Part shown: piece after piece, positions 1 through 10,469 of the stretch
Layout: every line of letters begins with the position of its first letter
How positions within the stretch are numbered: position 1 is the stretch's first letter
NCBI RefSeq assembly: GCF_013122565.1
Contig: NZ_CP053258.1
Length of the DNA: 64,000 nt
From: Escherichia coli
GTDB lineage: Bacteria; Pseudomonadota; Gammaproteobacteria; Enterobacterales; Enterobacteriaceae
Reading direction: 5' to 3' (one strand)
Notes under the pieces: generated by a model
Databases searched by the model: none
Told to the model about the DNA's origin: nothing
The model's input: the letters and a program-made list of their open reading frames with translations, nothing else
Made by a program: the position numbers and the translations under genes

Positions 1-510
1 AGCGCCATGCTCTTTCTGTTTAACTTTCGCTAGATAACTGATGGCATACCGAAGGTCATTCATTGCCGCGGTATCTGCATAGTGGATAACCTAGTCGATT
101 CGGACCGGATAATTTTCTTTAGCACGGCACAGGTGGTGGTATCCGTCTCCTTCTGTTGCCCGTTCCCAGACATCTCCCATCAAACGGGAAAGCTGGTAAG
201 GGTTCTGGTGATACTGGCCGTTCAGATAACCGAGTAGATGGATATGCAGACCTTTCTTCACTGTGTATTCCATCACCCAGTAATAACCGGCCATCGCGTT
301 TTCTGTTTCGGTCAACAGGTGTAGTATTTCTGTACACATGGTGTGTTTACAGACATGCCCGAAACTGGCGGTATTTTTCCGGTAAGCGAAATCAATTCTG
401 AAGGGTAACAGCTTAGCGAAACGCTGAAACATCGCTTCCATGTGGGCGTTGATGTCCTCCAGAATCTGACCATTCATTACGTAGTTAGGATTGGCGTTGT
501 AAGGCTTCAT
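1..510 (-). pseudogene. YfjJ/YagK-like (inovirus Gp2-type) island protein with an in-frame TAG at 91-93. The frame stays open to the window edge.
   Basis: The ORF track gives 91-585. The likely start is ATG 510, preceded by GAGGAAG. After the TAG at 91-93 the same frame reads on (VIHYADTAAMNDLRYAISYLAKVKQKEHGA) down to nt 1. The family call rests on position in a CP4-57-like gene order and general sequence resemblance, from memory. Confidence 0.45.
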
Positions 511-859
511 TTGTCTTCCTCTTGTTGAGTCAGAGGAAGACGTTGTTACGTAATTTTTACACAGGCCGATTGACCTCACATTCACCTGTAGCTTCCCCTA
601 GGGAACCAGCAACATGTACTACTCATGGCGAGACTGACGGATACCATTGATATGAGGAGAGCAGATTGTTATCAGATAAGGGGGATGGATCTGTCCTGTA
701 TGATCTCAGCAGGCAGAACTGACAGCACGGGAGAGAGCAAGTAGCATACCAGGATAAGACAACATAACTATCACTACGTCACGATATAACTTCTGCAAAT
801 AATACTAATTAACCTTAATTTATCTGTCTTGATCCCATCACGTAATGTCACGAACGGTG

Positions 860-2474
860 CAAAAGTGGCTCTTCCGCAACTTGGGTGGAGATTTTCATGC
901 CAATGGACTCATTACCCTCTGCCTGAGTAGTTCAAATCCAGCTTGACCATACATCTGGCGTTTGAGCATCTTCAGGCGATTTACATGACTTTCGACAACA
1001 CCATTACTCCAGCGACTGCTGACTGCCTCACATATAGCCGCAGCATCGGCTTCCATCACCGCAGCCACGCGCCGAAGTTCTGCTGAATCGATTTCGTGGA
1101 CTCGAGTGAACCAGCTGCTTAGCCGTGATTTAGTTTGGGTTTTCAGAATACGGTAGAACTCTAGTGCCAGTTGATGCGCTATTTTCAGCTCCGGTTCTTT
1201 TTCACACATCAGACTAATAAATCGGGAAGCATAATTTTCTTCACCCCTGATTATTCTCCAGGGCATCAACCAGCGGCTTACCCGGTACACTGAAAGAAGT
1301 CTGGCAGCAGTAGTCACCAGCGGGATCCAGCCTTTACGCCATTTGGCAACAGCATCCCTGACGATGTTTTCACTGCCTGTAACCCCCCGGGTCACCATTT
1401 CCCGCATATCCGGCTGGCATTATAATTACCACTTTCTCATTGCTCTTTTAACCACTCCCTCCAAGGGTCCAGAAGTCCTCGCTTTGGAGGCCGGGTTGAC
1501 ATTTCAGGGAATGTTCCTGAACGCGCCCAGCGACTGACTGTCACTCGCGACAGGCCTGTAATACGGGATATTTCCCTGAAACTACATCCCTTGTTATGCA
1601 GGGCCATAACCTCTGTCCAACGCTGATGCCGTTTTTTGCGGATTTGCTGTTTAAGGCGTTCCGGACGACGGAGCGATGCTGCAGGCACAGACAGTTCTGG
1701 CTCAGGTGATTTCTTTGGTGACAACTCACTGGCAACAAGACGTATCAGATGCCTATGTCTGTACATCAATCGTTCAAGCGCATCGCCAATATTTTTTAGC
1801 AGATGCTATCGATCAGCCACCTGTCTGACCTGAGGTGCACCTTCACGTGCTGCTGTCGCATAGGTTCCACTGCGATCACGCGAGACAACCTGTATTTCCG
1901 GATATTTTCTGAACCAGGTCGCCAGCGTACGCTGATCGCGGTCGGGAAGCAGGACAGTGAGTATCAAGATTGACTATTAACGTACCGTAACGGTGGCCCC
2001 GATGCCACGCCCACTCATCAATACCGACATGGGGTGAGCCTGACAGTTTCGTCTCCGGGGTATTGATAACTCTGCGAAGAAGAGTATCTGCACTGCAACA
2101 GAGACCCACTGCCGTTGCTGCCCGTTTTCCAGCCTCACCTCCAGCTATTAATCCCAGTTGACGTTGTAAATTTTGTAACGCCTGTGAAGACTGCTGGTGT
2201 GAACCAGCGAAGGGAGTAAGCGACTCGGCAAAAATTTTACGTGAACAAGCTGGGTTACGGCAGTACCAGTGGCGGGCGGAAAATACAAGCCATAGCGTCT
2301 GCCCTGTGTTGAATATTGGCATGCAAAAAATTGGATTGCGCTCGCGCCCTTAATTACCCGGCGATGGGGAATAAGCTTCATCAGCCGTTGTCCCCGGGTG
2401 TAGCGTGCACAGTTGCATATCATTCTCAGACGAACCGATGGCTGGAGGGATGGTCGCCGCAGCCTGCCATGAGA
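860..2474 (-). mobile_element. ISL3-family insertion sequence remnant. The transposase is split over at least 3 frames (895-1407, 1437-1769, 1876-2322) and its 5' end abuts or is truncated by the neighbouring IS.
   Basis: The C-terminal fragment ends SNGVVESHVNRLKMLKRQMYGQAGFELLRQRV, which is typical of ISL3 transposases. The middle fragment has an HTH (GLSRVTVSRWARSGTFPE). The N-terminal fragment has a zinc-finger-like WYCRNPACSRKIF. A GGCTCTTCCGCAA-like end lies near 867. Confidence 0.65.
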
Positions 2475-3781
2475 CTGTAATTAAAATTGTGTAATTGCCT
2501 GTTTTTGATATGTTCACTCCAATAACGGAGACAGGCAAATTATGGACGAAAAGAAACTCAAAGCACTGGCGGCTGAACTGGCTAAGGACCTTAAAACCGA
2601 AGCCGACCTCAATCAGTTTTTCCGTATGCTGACGAAATTAGCCGTCGAAACAGCGCTCAATGCGGAGCTGACTGACCACCTCGGACATGAGAAAAATGCG
2701 CCAAAAACAGGTTCAAACACCCGCAATGGCTACTCGTCAAAAACGGTGTTATGCGATGATAGCGAGATCGAACTGAACACGCCGCGTGACCGTGAAAACA
2801 CCTTCGAGCCGCAGCTGATTAAGAAGCACCAGACGCGCATTACTCAGATGGACAGCAACATTTTATCCCTTTACGCCAAAGGCATGACTACCCGAGAAAT
2901 CGTCGCCACCTTCAAAGAAATGTCCGACGAAGATGTGTCACCCACGCTGATATCTAAGGTCACCGACGCGGTAAAAGAACAGGTTACTGAGTGGCAAAAC
3001 CGACAGCTGGATGCGCTGTATCCCATTGTTTACATGGACTGTATCGTCGTAAAAGTCCGTCAGAATGGGAGTGTGATAAACAAGGCCGTCTTCCTGGTGC
3101 TGGGGATCAATACCGAAGGCCAGAAAGAGTTGCTGGGCATGTGGCTGACCGAAAACGAAGGCGCAAAGTTCTGGCTGAGTGTGCTGACGGAGCTGAAAAA
3201 CCGTGGCCTCCAGGACATTCTTATAGCCTGTGTGGACGGTCTTAAGGGCTTCCCGGATGCGATAAACAGCGTCTTCCCGCAGCCCCATATCCAGCTGTGC
3301 AGCATCCATGTGGCGCGTAACAGCCTGAAATACGTGTCCAAGAAGGACTACAAAGCCGTCACCAGCGGCTTGAAGACTGTCTATCAGGTCCGGACCGAAG
3401 AGGCGGCACTGATGGCGCTCGATGCGTTCGCGGAAGTCTGGGACGATAAATATCCGCAAATCAGCAAAAGCTGGTATGCGCACTGGGAAAACCTCAATAC
3501 GCTCTTCAGTTATCCGCCGGATATCCGCAAGGCCATCTACACCACGAACGCAATCGAATCGCTTATCAGTATGATCCGAGCTGCGATTAAGAAACGCAAA
3601 GTGTTCCCGACGGATGACTCGGTACGAAAGGTTATTTATCTGGCGACCAAAGATGCGTCGAAAAAATAGAGTATGCCGATCCAGAACTGGCGGTTAGCAA
3701 TGAGCCGTTTTATTATCGAGTTCGGTGATCGCCTGAGCGATCACCTTTAATACATTGGCAGTTACACACAATTACTGACAG
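2475..3781 (+). mobile_element. IS256-family (IS1414-like) insertion sequence.
   Basis: Imperfect terminal inverted repeats: 2475-2499 (ctgtaattaaaattgtgtaattgcc) versus the reverse complement of 3757-3781 (ctgtcagtaattgtgtgtaactgcc), 19 of 25 matches by eye. They bracket a mutator-type transposase. No flanking direct repeat was seen. Confidence 0.6.
2542..3750 (+). pseudogene. IS256/mutator-family transposase with an in-frame TAG at 3667-3669.
   Basis: The 375-aa ORF has a typical IS256-family sequence (DHLGHEKNAP, YPIVYMDCIVVKVR, NAIESL). After the TAG the same frame continues as SMPIQNWRLAMSRFIIEFGDRLSDHL and stops at 3748-3750. This matches the usual family C-terminus. Confidence 0.7.
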
Positions 3782-3840
3782 GCTCCCTGCCATAAGTTAA
3801 TAAAAAATTAACGCATATATAAATAAAAATCACCATAAAG

Positions 3841-5367
3841 TTATTCTTTCAGAGGGGGGTAGCTAAATACACTTCCGACACAGTGATATGCCGGTTTTCC
3901 TGACAGCATGTTGTGTTTTGCGTCCAGCTCTGAAGGCGTCATTTCGGAAGCAAGATATTTGACATAATGTGTTCCACTTTCATCTTCCCATAACTGAACT
4001 TTGCCTTCCTCAGCAAGCTGTTCCAGAACAGGCTCAAGATCAGCTTTTTTTCTGAGTGAACGATGCAAGCCCTGCATCATGTCACGCCTTAAAAAATCAT
4101 AAGATCCATTTTTAACAAGATGGTTTTCGAGCCACCAGATAACTCTTTCAGAATGCGAAGGCCCTCTGACAGCATCCATTTTTACAATAAAATGGTTAAG
4201 ATACCATTCTGATATTAACAACGCCGCTTCCAACGTTTCGAGCGTAATAACAGTTGAGTCAGGAGTAATAAACAACTGCATCACAGCGGCATTCCTTGCT
4301 GTATGTTCAATGTATCGTGCTGCCCAGTCGCTGTGATGGTACAACTTTTTCCCTGGTTGCATCAGATGTTTTACGTACCTGCCAACATCATGTAGCCGTT
4401 TCTTTGCATCAGGTGAAAAAGTCATACAGATACGGGGGTGATTTTTTTCCCTGCGTTCAATCCCTGCAAGTAAATGTTTTTTCTGAATAGAATAAAACGT
4501 TTCCAGGTCGGACTCATCGCCAGATACCAGCTCATCAATATCAATTAGTCTGCTGAGTAACGTAAGATCCATGGTTAACGTCCGCGCATATACTCCCGTA
4601 GCCCGTACTGTATTGCCCAGCGATTTCAGTGTGCTATCGTGTGGTTCCGGTTGCGTCATCAGCAGCATACCAAGCCGTGGATCCTTAATATCGTAACAGC
4701 CCGTTGACACACGGCTGACCCGATAATCATCACCACACCACAACGTATTAGGAACTGCTGTCTTACGGCGCATAATGCTTTCATGCAGAGCACTTCCCTC
4801 GTCAGACGTGATACCCAGACTGGGATATTCCCCTAGCTCTTTCAAAAGTGCTTCAGCCGTAGGATCCGTTACCGTGAGACGCACTCTCACGGGTTTAATG
4901 GGCTGATTTTTAAGACATTCCTCCAGTTCGTTTCTGGCTTTATCCACTCCATCTTTCTGACGCACTGCTTTCTGAAGCAATTTCTTAAGACTCTTACATT
5001 CTTCATCCCATAGTACGTATTGCCGCTCATACTCCTTCAGCCTAACTGAGAACACATCAGCCAGCTCTCTCTCAATTTGATGAATTTGCGCCATGATGAG
5101 CCTGTATACTGTCGTTTTTCTGCTTCCTGATCTCGCCAGTATTATGTGAAATTGTGACACAGGAACGATAACGCCATCATCAATTTCAACATCATACATA
5201 TCCTGACAGGCCAAGGCCATGCTCCCCTGAAGCGTCGCAAAGATAAGCTCCACCGCTGCTCTTGTTTTGCCATATATACAAAATATAACTTTTTGAAAAA
5301 AATACAAAATCGCTCTGGCGCTCAGATTAACATCATGATTTTCAGTTTTTTTATATGTGAGTTTCAT
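3841..5367 (-). CDS. YfjI-like / DUF3987-type island protein.
   Basis: A 508-aa ORF immediately downstream of alpA, the position yfjI holds in CP4-57. It has a P-loop-like ARSGSRKTT segment. The family assignment is from memory and context only. Confidence 0.45.
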   Translation of the reverse strand: MKLTYKKTENHDVNLSARAILYFFQKVIFCIYGKTRAAVELIFATLQGSMALACQDMYDVEIDDGVIVPVSQFHIILARSGSRKTTVYRLIMAQIHQIERELADVFSVRLKEYERQYVLWDEECKSLKKLLQKAVRQKDGVDKARNELEECLKNQPIKPVRVRLTVTDPTAEALLKELGEYPSLGITSDEGSALHESIMRRKTAVPNTLWCGDDYRVSRVSTGCYDIKDPRLGMLLMTQPEPHDSTLKSLGNTVRATGVYARTLTMDLTLLSRLIDIDELVSGDESDLETFYSIQKKHLLAGIERREKNHPRICMTFSPDAKKRLHDVGRYVKHLMQPGKKLYHHSDWAARYIEHTARNAAVMQLFITPDSTVITLETLEAALLISEWYLNHFIVKMDAVRGPSHSERVIWWLENHLVKNGSYDFLRRDMMQGLHRSLRKKADLEPVLEQLAEEGKVQLWEDESGTHYVKYLASEMTPSELDAKHNMLSGKPAYHCVGSVFSYPPLKE

Positions 5368-5391
5368 TGCATAATCTCTCTTTAGAAAAAA

Positions 5392-5616
5392 TTAAACACT
5401 TCTGGATGCAATCCACTCATCAACGGAAGTGGAACGACATCCAACGGAGGCAGCACCGAGTCTGACGGGCTTTGGAAACGTTTCGTCGTAATACCTGGAT
5501 TCAGGGTTTAGCTTTTCATAGATAGTTGACCGGGACAGACCGACTATTTTCGTCAGTTCTCTCATACGCAGAATACGTTGCTGTGGCTCTGGTTGGGTGG
5601 TTTGAAAAGATGACAT
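5392..5616 (-). CDS. AlpA-family (MerR-like HTH) prophage/island regulator.
   Basis: The 74-aa product from ATG 5616 is preceded by AGGAGA. The motif LRMRELTKIVGLSRSTIYEKL...FPKPVRLG...DEWIASR is characteristic of AlpA. Confidence 0.75.
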   Translation of the reverse strand: MSSFQTTQPEPQQRILRMRELTKIVGLSRSTIYEKLNPESRYYDETFPKPVRLGAASVGCRSTSVDEWIASRSV

Positions 5617-5716
5617 TATCGATTCTCCTGTGAATGTCCGGATGTGACCGAACTTTGGCACAGGATTTGGAATAATGTCCCCGTAAAAGAAACGAAACCA
5701 ACTGCAGGGAGTGACT

Positions 5717-7561
5717 ATGCATACGTTTGCCAATCTGATGTATGATGTTTACCAATCCTTTGGCTTATTCAGTAAAGGGGACCGGCAAGGCGAGATACGG
5801 GCATCTGCAACCTTTTCAGGTCATCAGCGATTTTTTGGTAATCGTGATGATGAAAGACATCAGGAACAAAAACGCTATGATGAAATCATAAGAATTATTG
5901 ATGTAGAAAAGGTGTTCAGTACAGTTCAACGAAGGGAAATCTTTTATAAATATGAGCAACTTTATAATGCGCTGATGGCTCGACCGAGCTTTACCAAACT
6001 GAGTCGAAAACAAGTACAAAAGCAGTATGCTCTGCATATCATCCCCAGACTAATCGCACTTGACATATATAAAACGTATAAAATTCAAAATAAAAACAGT
6101 TTTTATCATCATATACATCTGTTTCTGAAAGAGGACTATTGCCCATGTGGAGCAGATAAAAAAAAAGGAACTTACTCTGCAGTACGGCAGTATCTCAAAA
6201 ACCTTATAAGAAATTTAAAATTATCTTATCCAGAAAACTTGCTTCCTGTTTATCGCGTAATTGAAAACATCCGTGAGAGTTCATCACAGAAAGCAGGTGC
6301 GCTGAATGCTCCCATACAAGAGAGCATTGAGGCTTACGAAGCCATTGTTACACCAGAAGAGATTAAATACATCAGAACTGGTCTGGAAGAATTAAAAACC
6401 GCACATTATTCACTGACCGTACTCCTTAACCTTGAACGTCTATTCTCTGTTGTTAATATAATCTCGTCATATTACAGAAAGTATCTTAACGATGGAATAA
6501 GGCCAAATAATATCTCGTCTATGCTATGCAGGTATCTTTATGAACCCCAAAGTAATGACATCTTCTGTCACAGTAACATCATTAATTCAATTGTGGAGTA
6601 CTACTACGTGCGGGCAATAAAACCCCTATCACTGAATGTAAGCAATGATGTTATGCTGTGCGTGGATAAATTAAAAGACATTGTATTTAATTTTAATAAC
6701 AAAACCATTATTTCTGAAGCGGATTTAATAAATATTGCAGTTGTATTAAAAAAAGAACCTGACAATCATTGTCTGATGCCATATCTTGAACTGCATATGG
6801 TGATACATTTAATCAGCCATGGAGAAACTGACGAAGCTTATGAGATGCTTAAACGGGTTTCTCTGGATGATTTACCTTCAGGATATCTGACAGCTGCTTT
6901 TTTAATTCTCCGTACTGCATTACGAATAAAGAGAGAAAGGAAAAAAATCAAAAATGGTGTTTTCTCCTCGGATATAACAGCAATACTGGAAAGTCAGGGG
7001 ATCTATACTGACTATGTCCCTGTCATTAAGGACTATACAAACAACGGCATTGATGGGTCTCTTACGAAAAATTCATTTTTATCTGGCACCATTTTACCAG
7101 ATGCCAACAATCTGACCATCATGCGTATAGTAAGAATGTATAATAATATGGTCAGAAGAATAAGTCACTGGAATGACCTTTATCATGACGGTGTTTTTCC
7201 GGAGTCTGTTTATGGGCTCCTTGATAAAGTTGATGCCATTCTTGGTAAGATACTCAATATTATCTTTTTTGAAAATATCACATCCAGACGGAATTTAGCC
7301 TTCATCCTGAAAAATAAAAAAATCCTTACCACAAGTGAGCTGAATGATAACCTCATTGGTATACTGATTAACTGTCCACTTATAACGTGCGTACAAAACC
7401 TCGAAATTTTAATACAATACCTTCGCTGTCCGGGAGAGGAGTTAAGAAATATAATTATTTCAATTGACAGGAAATCATGGAATTTGATATGCGGAGCCCT
7501 GAAAATCCTGGAGGAAGACAGAACAGGACGAGCAGAAATAACACAGAAAGATGGGAAATAA
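5717..7561 (+). CDS. Hypothetical 614-aa protein; no motif recognised.
   Basis: A long uninterrupted ORF in visibly AT-rich DNA (the track starts it at GTG 5711). ATG 5717 is preceded by AGGGAG. It is divergent from alpA and occupies the slot that yfjH holds in CP4-57. Confidence 0.55.
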   Translation: MHTFANLMYDVYQSFGLFSKGDRQGEIRASATFSGHQRFFGNRDDERHQEQKRYDEIIRIIDVEKVFSTVQRREIFYKYEQLYNALMARPSFTKLSRKQVQKQYALHIIPRLIALDIYKTYKIQNKNSFYHHIHLFLKEDYCPCGADKKKGTYSAVRQYLKNLIRNLKLSYPENLLPVYRVIENIRESSSQKAGALNAPIQESIEAYEAIVTPEEIKYIRTGLEELKTAHYSLTVLLNLERLFSVVNIISSYYRKYLNDGIRPNNISSMLCRYLYEPQSNDIFCHSNIINSIVEYYYVRAIKPLSLNVSNDVMLCVDKLKDIVFNFNNKTIISEADLINIAVVLKKEPDNHCLMPYLELHMVIHLISHGETDEAYEMLKRVSLDDLPSGYLTAAFLILRTALRIKRERKKIKNGVFSSDITAILESQGIYTDYVPVIKDYTNNGIDGSLTKNSFLSGTILPDANNLTIMRIVRMYNNMVRRISHWNDLYHDGVFPESVYGLLDKVDAILGKILNIIFFENITSRRNLAFILKNKKILTTSELNDNLIGILINCPLITCVQNLEILIQYLRCPGEELRNIIISIDRKSWNLICGALKILEEDRTGRAEITQKDGK

Positions 7562-7579
7562 TTGCATATTTCCACCTCT

Positions 7580-7621
7580 CTCCCGGCTACACTGGCTACG
7601 TGTAGCCAGTGTAGCCGGGAG
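7580..7621. repeat. Perfect 20-bp inverted repeat with a 2-nt centre (strong hairpin), starting 19 nt after the 614-aa ORF stop.
   Basis: ctcccggctacactggctac-gt-gtagccagtgtagccgggag, read directly. No T-run follows on either strand. Confidence 0.85.
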
Positions 7622-9047
7622 TCACACCCTGAAAGTAACAATGCGAAAACCAGGAGCTTGTCCCAACAGGATTTTATTCCAGATGATTAGGCCGCTGGTA
7701 ATATACAGCAGAGCCTTATAACTTCAGTTCTTTTCCCATCAGCTCAGTATCTGACGAAAACAATGAATCCAGCTATAAACCCTACCTACTATCCACAGGC
7801 GAGCTTTCCTCCTTCTGGTATCTTCCCCTGTTTACTCGACTGAATATGAGGTTCACAGCATCGCTGCCTCCAGATAATTGCTCAACCATTCGTCATCAGC
7901 AACCTTTTCACTTTGAAAACAACATCGATAACCCCCTGCATATATTATATACTGAAATTATTACTCTTTATTTAGAAAATATAGAAAAAATGAACCTTGA
8001 AAGTTATAATTCGCAAATAAAATTAACCTAATCTTAAACCGCGGCATCAACTTTAACATTTCACAGCCAAAGATAATACTTATGCAAAACATTACGCTGG
8101 GATGCATTATGGAAGATAATTTTTGATTTCATTCGCGATAAAAACAATACTGTAAAAATTTGAATACGCAAAAAATAAATATGTAAAAGCAGATGATATT
8201 TCCATTTATGTCGAGCGCCAGCGTTATGCATAGAAGACTTATAAAAAGTAACGGTATTTTCATTGACGTTCTGTAACACAGATATAAAATAACAGGTATT
8301 CATAAAGAATAAATCATTAATACAGCTATTGCCCCAATATCTATACGACGTGTAATTATTATCAGGCAGCGCTAGCAAGGCGGACATTACAAGCACAAAG
8401 AAATAATATATCTTCGGTTTTCTACAATCACCGTAAATCGTCCCTCTTCCACTTTAAGGCCTGAAAAAATATGGCGCCAACATCATACAAACGAAGAAAT
8501 TAAATATTCTACACAACCACAGCGAATTTTCTCATTTATGACATTACTCTAATTTTATTTCTCCACTAAGCATATGCGTCAAACAATAAATACCCTCCAG
8601 CCACAGAGTCTAAACTGATATACAATATCGCTGTTTGCTTTATCGCCCCTCTTCCAATATAGAACGCATACCATTAAATCATTTACCTCTTTCCAGATAC
8701 AAGTCATGATTATACGTCCCATTGAGTTCTTATTCTCATGCAGAAATTGTGACTCAATAAATGCAGAATTAAAGCCTGTTAATATTCATGGTATAGCCAG
8801 ATTTTCTCTCTGTCTTCTTTTGTCTCCGAACAACTCATATACCATTATCCTGATTAATCTTCGCGTACTCATACGACGTCTTCCCCCTTCAACTATACCC
8901 TATTGAAATGATTTTATTGCTTTTGTTCAGACAACAAAAAAATGCGAGCTCTGACACAACAGTAAAAACCAACCGTTAAAGTATCTCTGTGTTTCCACAC
9001 TCTCCCTTGCTGAGAGGGAATTCTGAGCCCGGTCACTTGAGCTTGAT

Positions 9048-10251
9048 TCACCATCTTTTTGGATTACTGGGAAGTTGTGACATCACATAATCCGCCCACG
9101 CCTGCATCATCGGTATATGCTGATCCAGTAGATCAGTCCGGTGATATGCTGCCTCAACCTTATTTTTCAGCGTGTGGGCAAGCGCCCTTTCCGCCAAATC
9201 CCTGTTCACTACACCAGTCCCTGAATGTTGAACGAAAACCATGTGCTGTTGCCACCCGTCCGGGTATATCACTGATGGCATTCTTTTTACGCAGAAAACT
9301 CGTCAACACCATATCTGAAAGGATCTGCTGCTTTCTGGGAGAAGGAAACACCAGTTCATCATGCAAACCACGTATATTTTCCAGAACGTGAATGGCCTGC
9401 CGGGATAAAGGAATACGATGCTGTATCCTAGCTTTCATTCTTTCTGCTGGTATCGTCCATATCCGCTTATGAAAATCAATTTCAGCCCAGCGCATTCCCC
9501 TGGCTTCGCCCGAACGGGTTGCTGTAAGTATCACCATTAATAACAGTGCTCGGGTAACATTATAAGGTTCATCTGTATACACGCTTGTCGCCACAAACAG
9601 CGGTAATTGCCTCCAGGGCATTGCCGGCTGATGTTCATCACGTCCTCTTGATTGCTGTGGAAGCAAATGTTCAACCACATCAACAGGATTTGCCACACAA
9701 AAACCATGCGCCCAGCCCCACTGCATAACAACATGAATACGCTGTTTAATCCGGCTTGCCGTTTCTGATAAGGTCAACCAGATTGGACGCAGTGTCTCTG
9801 CCACGTCCGCAGCCGTAATCTCATTCAGCGTTTTTGCTCCCAATTGAGGAAACACGTAATTTTCAAGCGTCGACAACCACTGCCTGACATGCTTTGGATT
9901 TTCCCATCCCGGTGACAATTCTGCATGTACACGCATGGCTGCATCGGCAAATGTTGGGATAACAACTTTTTCAGCTTCAGCCTTTTTGATCTCCAGAGGA
10001 TCATCACCTGCAGCAAGTTGCTCTCGCATTATCCGGGCAGTACGTGCAGCTTCGGCAATACTGACCTCAGGGTAAGTTCCCAATCCAGCATTACGCCTTT
10101 TTTGTGTCACCGGACTTACATAACGAAAAACCCATTTACCCCGCCCCTTTACTGAAGAAGGATGAAGGGTCAGCCCTGTAATTCCCCCATGAGGCAATGG
10201 TTTGTCATCAGGTTTGATATGCCTTGCTTTTGTATCAGTCAATACTGCCAT
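9048..10251 (-). pseudogene. P4-type tyrosine integrase, frameshifted near 9191-9207.
   Basis: The N-terminus is MAVLTDTKARHIKPDDKPLPHGGITGLTLHP (P4-like arm domain), followed by the HGFRSTFRDWCSE box. The expected C-terminus RDLAERALAHTLKNKVEAAYHRTDLL, containing the catalytic Tyr, lies in a different frame (ORF 9048-9281). Confidence 0.8.
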
Positions 10252-10412
10252 ACGCTAATTCCTGTTTCTCTAGTATGCCATCCAGTATGCCCTTATTCTC
10301 ACACTTCACTAAGCATACATTAGATAATATCGGACAGAAAAAATTTGTAATGTATTGTTTATAATTAAATTATACAACGCCTCTGGATTAAGTCAGATTT
10401 ATTTCAGGCGGT

Positions 10413-10426
10413 CCCCCTCACCGCCA
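10413..10426 (+). repeat. Candidate att core: 14 nt matching the 3' end of tRNA-Ser (serX/serW type).
   Basis: ccccctcaccgcca matches the remembered ...CCCCCCCTCACCGCCA 3' end of E. coli tRNA-Ser(GGA). The upstream sequence is AT-rich and does not look like a tRNA. Confidence 0.4.
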
Positions 10427-10441
10427 TATTTAAATAAATAT

Positions 10442-10465
10442 CCTCCGGCATAGCCGGAGGTTTTT
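10442..10465 (+). terminator. Rho-independent terminator-like hairpin.
   Basis: CCTCCGGC-ata-GCCGGAGG followed by TTTTT, 16 nt after the tRNA-like core. This is where a native tRNA terminator would sit. Confidence 0.55.
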
Positions 10466-10469
10466 CAAA

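Follow-up and report, generated by a model that had tools for sequence, protein, structure and literature searches.

CP4-57 of Escherichia coli K-12 has the gene order intA - yfjH - alpA - yfjI - yfjJ, in which yfjH lies between alpA and int and is divergent from alpA. The same backbone genes, in the same order and orientation, are found in a 64,000-nucleotide (nt) stretch of E. coli DNA (NCBI RefSeq assembly GCF_013122565.1, contig NZ_CP053258.1), called the window here, as an earlier note made from the sequence alone had recognized. At the position of yfjH, the window carries an AT-rich gene encoding 614 amino acids (aa), gene X, which is likewise divergent from alpA. X is co-inherited with alpA and is a fixed backbone gene of its island family, not cargo. 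Together, alpA, the control region that it shares with X, X itself, and a palindrome of GCTAC motifs behind X form a co-inherited unit bordering a hotspot for defence cargo. X and the palindrome are an undescribed backbone module within an already known island type.

YfjH (318 aa) and X have no detectable relation (hhalign probability 0.3%, BLASTP E 0.18). The alpA-divergent position is thus open to unrelated genes at deep divergence, and the proposal that X is the counterpart of yfjH holds for position and fails for homology. The window yfjI is only 25% identical to K-12 YfjI. Unlike X, yfjH in K-12 CP4-57 is not followed by a GCTAC palindrome.

Other satellites offer partial parallels. Rousset et al. 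are said to have described, in 2022, a hotspot between psu and int of the P4 satellite, where interchangeable anti-phage systems sit within conserved flanks. The X islands share with P4 a P4-type integrase and conserved flanks around defence cargo. Unlike P4, they have no psu, delta, sid, or alpha genes; X is itself the conserved flank, and the hotspot is bounded by the palindrome. In Staphylococcus aureus pathogenicity islands and phage-inducible chromosomal islands (SaPI/PICI), stl is divergent from str-xis-pri-rep, and an iteron-containing origin lies just 3' of rep. Their divergent regulator evolves fast, and related elements have non-homologous genes in its place. The likeness to X is one of layout only: a divergent gene, a short control region, and a repeat-containing cis site beside a backbone gene. 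X has no helix-turn-helix (HTH), is two to three times the length of Stl, and shares no sequence or fold with Stl or Rep. Its site is a perfect palindrome, whereas the SaPI site consists of iterons flanking an AT-rich region. No helper phage is known for the X islands.

The tmRNA-site islands of Pseudomonas encode a tyrosine integrase at ssrA, AlpA, an inovirus Gp2-like protein, RadC, and variable defence cargo, with no obvious transfer machinery; neither an X-like gene nor the palindrome is described in them (PMC12595487). The X islands are of the same class, and a remote metagenomic relative, L035, has the typical YqaJ, DUF932, and RadC genes. The enterobacterial X islands use tRNA sites too. 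In the papers searched, including those on yfjH, on alpA/DUF3987 islands, and on CP4-57 hotspots, no description of an X-like gene or of the palindrome was found. Islands with a P4-type integrase, AlpA, DUF3987, and Gp2-like proteins are among the main anti-phage carriers in enterobacteria. X adds to them a backbone protein of ~600 aa that has neither an assigned function nor a domain or fold match, and about one-fifth of complete E. coli genomes encode a paralogue of it.

X is not the orphan that the earlier note took it to be. It belongs to an unnamed family spread across Enterobacterales, with members such as WP_204262369, WP_060615816, and WP_000282206, all labelled "hypothetical protein". 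By megablast, the same allele (~99%) is present in three complete E. coli genomes, and an allele 77% identical at the nucleotide level is present in ~42 more. A search of 5.8 billion proteins recovered 119 clusters at 90% identity, nearly all of 580-630 aa and all hypothetical. The sources include E. coli, E. albertii, Salmonella, Klebsiella, Serratia, Cronobacter, Citrobacter, Lelliottia, Leclercia, Enterobacter, and Edwardsiella, and a scan of GTDB genomes brought in Kluyvera, Morganella, Providencia, and Xenorhabdus. Identity to X falls into tiers of 99, 73, 65, 51, 37, and 33%. X is 99% identical to the family member P0001, and homology runs over the full length of ~580-630 aa. Only 76 clusters (at 50% identity) came from a profile search of 1.84 billion cluster representatives, which points to a genuine but narrow family. 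The commonest member is the O157-type paralogue WP_000282206, which is 29% identical to X. It is found in 1037 of 5426 complete E. coli genomes (~19%) and is at least 99% identical in almost all carriers. Four "plasmid" matches to X are this paralogue, in records that resemble pieces of chromosome. A tblastn search of X against 50,697 phage records gave no match.

The coding sequence is intact, as the earlier note stated. It opens with an ATG that has a GGGAG Shine-Dalgarno sequence (5707-5711) 5 nt before it, and homologues likewise begin with MHTF. An in-frame GTG at 5711 would add two residues if used. The AT-richness relative to the flanks was also correctly read: X has a GC content of 0.365 (0.340 at third codon positions), against 0.471 in alpA, 0.438 in yfjI, 0.475 in int, and 0.466 in the whole window. 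X is AT-rich relative to its own locus in every lineage checked, the remote one included. The product, of ~71 kDa and pI 8.8, is predicted to be soluble with no transmembrane segment, and residues 61-140 form a basic stretch (pI 9.8).

The earlier note had recognized no motif in X, and database searches agree. Neither the single protein nor a 25-sequence profile found a match in Pfam, NCBIfam, PADLOC, PHROGs, or PDB sequences. The proposed check against defence families was negative: none of the 5027 PADLOC-DB 2.0 models matched X at E <= 1. A member-by-member Pfam scan at E <= 10 yielded no consistent weak family among the relatives, and no enzymatic or nucleotide-binding domain was detected in X.

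An AlphaFold2 model built with the family alignment is confident and all-helical (predicted local distance difference test, pLDDT, 80.6; predicted template modelling score 0.80). The N-terminal 275 residues modelled alone reach a pLDDT of 83.4. The models have no specific fold match, and a Foldseek search against viral structure models returned nothing at E < 1. The 25-sequence alignment has 61 invariant columns, mostly within the N-terminal 140 residues, including the motifs HQxFF, YxYExxYN, ALD, and FYxHxHxFL.

X is under purifying selection: the ratio of nonsynonymous to synonymous divergence (dN/dS) is 0.26 against the 65% allele and 0.21 against the 51% allele. Selection was what the earlier note had suspected from retention of the gene. 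A decaying or spurious frame, open by chance, would account for the AT-richness, the missing annotation, and the three loci in which X is a pseudogene (L018, L025, and L028). This explanation is refuted to near certainty by the homologues, whose full-length alignment spans 24 to 99% identity across many genera, by the confident models, and by dN/dS values of 0.2-0.26.

Locus contexts were fetched at all identity levels (36 loci, designated L001 and so on), and X, AlpA, YfjI, and Int were located in each. In every examined locus with a homologue, 30-odd loci from at least 12 genera, X is divergent from alpA, and yfjI lies beyond alpA, usually accompanied by yfjJ. These loci come from Escherichia, Salmonella, Klebsiella, Serratia, Edwardsiella, Enterobacter, Kluyvera, Leclercia, Morganella, Providencia, and Xenorhabdus, among others. 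The arrangement holds in both orientations relative to int, and the remote relative in L035, 24% identical, keeps X divergent from alpA-DUF3987. The usual order is int(+) ... yfjJ(-) yfjI(-) alpA(-) X(+), so that yfjJ separates the integrase from the other backbone genes. Only the window, three near-identical E. coli relatives, and the O157-type island share the order int - X - alpA with CP4-57. The O157-type island, found in EHEC-type (enterohaemorrhagic E. coli) genomes and represented by L027 (NZ_OQ420472), carries its X at 9001-10818 between int and alpA and occupies the same chromosomal site as the window island, next to ycdU. The description of X as filling a variable slot beside the integrase is therefore not borne out: a homologue holds this position in all loci of the island family, whatever the position or type of the integrase. 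The survey of related islands that the earlier note called for found X kept with alpA, and only the distantly related CP4-57 has another gene there.

The sequences tell of the same linkage. Pairwise divergence of X follows that of AlpA (Spearman rho 0.76, Mantel p 0.0005), follows that of YfjI less closely (rho 0.43), and is not significantly related to that of Int (rho 0.13). The islands are mosaic. The L027 integrase is 95% identical to that of the window, yet its X is 32% identical; in L019 and L021, YfjI is 75% identical and X only 36-39%.

Most loci have 98-160 bp between alpA and X; the gap widens to ~1.1 kb in the O157-type L027 and to ~460 bp in L035. Blocks within this region are invariant in all 11 aligned loci, even where X is ~36% identical. 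The conserved block before X holds an extended -10-like element, TGnAATAAT or GATACT (in the window, TG at 5668-5669 and AATAAT at 5671-5676). We read this element as a predicted, constitutive-looking extended -10 promoter for X at 5668-5676; a consensus promoter scan did not list it. CRP-like and other operator palindromes were also sought in this region, and nothing beyond the promoter-proximal blocks is conserved across loci.

The second fixed partner of X is the palindrome behind it. In the window it reads CTCCCGGCTACACTGGCTAC-GT-GTAGCCAGTGTAGCCGGGAG and is the sole perfect palindrome with arms of at least 14 nt in the 64 kb. Across loci it is perfect, 34-52 bp long, composed of GCTA(C/T) repeats, present once per locus, and 12-90 nt after the X stop codon. 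The exact GCTAC pattern occurs in 26 of the 36 fetched loci. Loci with the palindrome are the window, L001-L005, L007, L008, L011-L014, L016, L018-L026, L028-L032, and L035; of the X homologues, only the O157 type is without it. The two GCTAC motifs of each arm are spaced 9 nt apart and do not vary, while spacers and flanks differ between loci and change jointly on both arms. In a comparison of 11 distinct versions, both partners have changed in 6 of 18 pairs, and pairing is kept in 97% of cells. This level of covariation was not reached in any of 500 shuffles, and the signal collapses when the register is shifted. The arms of the variant in Morganella and Providencia read GCAAC...GCTAC. In L035, a perfect palindrome with 24-nt arms (GCTAT, GCTAT, and GCTA at 9-nt spacing) lies ~70 nt after the gene, so the GCTA motif persists down to the 24%-identical relative while spacers vary. 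The palindrome sequence was not found in the literature or in IMG/VR contigs.

Similarity between islands stops 2-7 nt past the right arm, so the backbone ends with the palindrome and the cargo follows. The outer GGGG that would mirror the left CCCC has been lost from the right arm in several loci. At the centre, the dinucleotide is GT or AC depending on the locus, the outcome expected if the whole palindrome can invert. No second copy or half-site bounding the cargo was found. The L009 and L010 contigs break off at 11857, inside the palindrome, and L006 keeps a single arm (9079-9092) with ~310 nt missing alongside. Such breaks and one-armed remnants are expected of a long palindrome, at which assembly may fail or real deletions may arise.

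As single-stranded DNA, the window palindrome would fold into a hairpin of -24.8 kcal/mol (z -8.75). It does not look like an intrinsic (Rho-independent) terminator: the loop is 0-2 nt where 3-8 nt would be usual, no T-run comes after the palindrome, and a terminator scan did not list it. Strict Watson-Crick symmetry, with one G-T pair in 198 cells, and a centre of 0-2 nt fit a DNA palindrome better than an RNA stem.

These observations bear on a rather unlikely reading, in which X works purely at the protein level, regulating or sensing the AlpA switch in the manner of Stl or Rap, and keeps the island silent until it receives a signal from a phage or the host. The palindrome would then do no more than end and stabilize the X mRNA and insulate towards the cargo. 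The divergent arrangement, the conserved shared control region, the co-divergence with AlpA, the fast yet constrained evolution of X, and the very stable hairpin would all suit such a regulator. The features that tell against a terminator and in favour of a DNA palindrome also count against this reading, and retention of GCTA down to a 24%-identical relative exceeds a terminator's needs.

The reading that we tentatively prefer, at just short of an even chance, is that X, a core gene of the widespread P4-type-integrase/AlpA/DUF3987/Gp2-like islands, acts as a DNA-site or regulatory factor together with AlpA and the palindrome. It would be cytoplasmic, either a scaffold or a protein associated with a DNA site, and would serve DNA transactions of the island itself. 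This role is suggested because the adjacency of X and palindrome is kept down to 24% identity, because remote relatives are fused to a DNA-binding, transposase-like domain, and because X co-diverges with AlpA and has no effector-type domain. X may act at the adjacent palindrome as a cis site of origin or junction type. Perhaps it also modulates the AlpA-controlled excision/replication operon, as the divergent regulator does in SaPI/PICI-type elements.

Several points weigh against a role of X in island DNA transactions. X has no HTH or other recognizable DNA-binding domain, and no GCTAC motif was seen when the alpA-X control region was read by eye. The actor on the palindrome could instead be AlpA, YfjI, the HUH-type YfjJ, or a host factor, and the palindrome could be a plain 3' hairpin of the X mRNA. 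The O157-type paralogue, the commonest of the family, has no perfect palindrome. Adjacency by itself would give some co-divergence of X and AlpA without functional coupling. A frameshift or stop codon interrupts X in L018 (Enterobacter pasteurii, 10001-11838), L025 (Xenorhabdus sp. BG5, 10001-11729), and L028 (E. coli AW1.7, 6405-8230), all of which keep alpA, yfjI, and the palindrome. Since alpA, yfjI, and the palindrome outlast the broken X, the gene is dispensable for persistence of the integrated island.

The fused relatives deserve separate mention. Three long relatives of X (P0136, P0137, and P0146; 865-933 aa) have an N-terminal extension resembling the transposases of the insertion sequence (IS) family IS481. 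The extension is diverged and consists of an HTH and an RNase H-like part. The E values against the IS481 model are 2e-23, 4e-20, and 2.5e-12, with 83 bits against a cut-off of 224 bits, far below it. In one of the three, the N-terminal HTH exceeds the Pfam threshold; in P0137 and P0146, the first catalytic Asp appears to be replaced. Window X aligns just to the C-terminal part of these proteins (profile positions 1-5 onward against residues ~264-315 on). L035 is the sole fused relative with context fetched; its order is DUF3987, alpA, fused X (2815-5616), palindrome. The palindrome itself resembles the abutted inverted-repeat junctions of IS481 elements, as two inverted repeats 0-4 nt apart, and its arms read 5'-TGTAGC or 5'-GTAGC outward from the centre.

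X and the palindrome might be viewed as an undescribed module for site-specific DNA transactions that derives from an IS481-type transposase system or is allied with one, which we consider quite unlikely. If this were true, the module would define the cargo junction of the island, either as the point where defence cassettes enter or are exchanged or as the replication or transfer origin of the excised island. In both cases X would recognize or process the palindrome. Unlike IS481 elements, window X is without that domain, and no second repeat copy bounds a transposon. X as an IS481-family transposase in its own right (HTH plus DDE/rve) was rejected, as the domain is wholly absent and the NCBIfam search of X was empty. 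A protelomerase or tyrosine recombinase, considered for the gene size and the adjacent palindrome with its TACGCGTA-like centre, was also rejected, as there is no fold similarity to TelK, TelA, or tyrosine recombinases.

Beyond the palindrome, the islands differ completely, and recognized defence systems are found there (Table 1). Int and yfjJ enclose a second variable slot, which in L007 (3807-6965) is filled by a reverse transcriptase and a PtuA-like ATPase (PADLOC PtuA1, ATPase_I-A) that look like a retron-type defence system. As this slot holds cargo too, two cargo positions flank a four-gene backbone in each island. The suggestion of a hotspot for anti-phage genes next to the integrase was right in that the island family carries such cargo; the cargo lies after the palindrome and between int and yfjJ, and does not include X.

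X could itself be an anti-phage gene (abortive infection, exclusion, or sensor) and the fixed first gene of the defence region, a possibility that we regard as real but unlikely. It directly adjoins the defence cargo, is AT-rich in every lineage, and is intact here despite a broken int. It also evolves faster than its neighbours, with a dN of 0.222 against 0.040 for alpA (5.5-fold) and 0.085 for yfjI (2.6-fold). Its alleles are reshuffled relative to yfjI, as in L019 and L021, and CP4-57 has the non-homologous yfjH at the same position. The empty PADLOC search and the absence of an enzymatic or nucleotide-binding domain or a fold match speak against a defence role. X is linked strictly one-to-one to alpA across genera, contrary to the behaviour of hotspot cargo, and the tie to a conserved palindrome is foreign to known single-gene defences. 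The O157-type allele, nearly identical in ~1000 genomes, shows no diversification there. For a protein serving the island's own DNA transactions, faster evolution would mark changes of specificity (site, phage, or host partner) and not an effector role. A long AT-rich reading frame beside an integrase is thus not automatically defence cargo, and a tempting mis-annotation is corrected. The lock with alpA and the covarying palindrome at the backbone/cargo junction offer a cheap handle, one gene and a ~40-bp site, on island biology and on the organization of defence hotspots.

An anti-defence or host-modulating factor that aids establishment in new hosts is a further proposal, and a very improbable one. 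The unrelated yfjH, which takes the place of X in CP4-57, has been identified as a blocker of RcaT, the toxin of retron-Sen2 (bioRxiv 10.1101/2020.06.22.160242). The predicted constitutive-looking promoter of X also speaks for the proposal. The lack of homology between YfjH and X weakens the comparison, no relative of X was found in phages or among viral structure models, and the palindrome would be left unexplained.

Table 1. Features of the window and recognized cargo beyond X in related loci
Feature	Position or locus	Strand	Basis or remark
yfjJ/YagK (inovirus Gp2-like) gene fragment	91..585	-	Parted from yfjI by IS debris
yfjI-like DUF3987 protein, 508 aa, downstream of alpA	3841..5367	-	PF13148 E 3.8e-67
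alpA, 74 aa, AlpA/Vis-type regulator	5392..5616	-	PF05930 E 2.8e-15; start and Shine-Dalgarno sequence read from the sequence
Shared alpA-X control region, 100 bp	5617..5716	.	Alignment of 11 loci; sequence
Gene X, 614 aa	5717..7561	+	Open reading frame (ORF), homologues, AlphaFold model, dN/dS
Perfect palindrome, 20-nt arms and 2-nt centre	7580..7621	.	19 nt past the X stop codon
AT-rich stretch, GC 0.37, ORFs <= 111 aa, none annotated	7622..9047	.	Position of defence cargo in related islands
P4-type tyrosine integrase, frameshifted	9048..10251 (main frame 9160-10251)	-	RefSeq marks a frameshift in a near-identical strain
tRNA 3'-end match CCCCCTCACCGCCA	10413..10426	+	Without a tRNA gene
Cargo: Shango SngABC	L003		PADLOC
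Cargo: Lamassu LmuB	L007		PADLOC
Cargo: type IIG enzyme and McrBC-domain protein	L011		Pfam PF10117; no PADLOC match
Cargo: QatABCD	L028		PADLOC
Cargo: OLD-type nuclease and UvrD helicase	L029		
Cargo: Mokosh MkoB	L030		PADLOC
Cargo: IetS (IetAS system)	L031		PADLOC

In the window, the cargo position is taken by an AT-rich stretch of 1.4 kb. It is found elsewhere only in three other complete E. coli genomes, where it is also unannotated. A search for relics of cargo genes found it to resemble neither the DNA nor any ORF of the other fetched loci. It could be an empty or decayed hotspot, or an unrecognized non-coding feature.

The earlier note described the neighbouring mobility genes as mostly broken. 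This applies to int, yfjJ, and the IS copies but not to alpA or yfjI, both of which are intact. The C-terminal piece of the integrase (9048-9281), with the AAYHR motif that includes the catalytic Tyr, is in another frame. The window island is probably immobile. In the near-identical strain PapRG-06-5, the same integrase gene is additionally interrupted by an IS3 element.

The tRNA 3'-end match beside the integrase is probably an att core repeat that marks the integrase-proximal end of the island, and the tRNA is presumably tRNA-Ser/serX. No tRNA gene was found anywhere in the 64-kb window. With an att repeat at the integrase-proximal end, the intact tRNA would be at the far end of the island, outside the window.

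The IS debris between yfjJ and yfjI (895-3669) is nested. It is composed of ISL3-family fragments (895-2322, minus strand) and an IS256-family transposase ORF (2542-3669, plus strand), in which RefSeq marks an internal stop in a sister strain. Between the island end and ycdU lies an IS200-type tnpA (10542-11051, minus strand), together with the Hfq-binding RNA STnc490 (11010-11133, minus strand; Rfam 140.8 bits). The region from 11330 to 16760 and beyond encodes ycdU, followed by an acyl carrier protein S-malonyltransferase, an outer-membrane lipoprotein-sorting protein, parts of an ATP-binding cassette transporter, and beta-ketoacyl synthases. The genes after ycdU are presumably an aryl-polyene-type lipid cluster, of which ymdE is the remnant in K-12.

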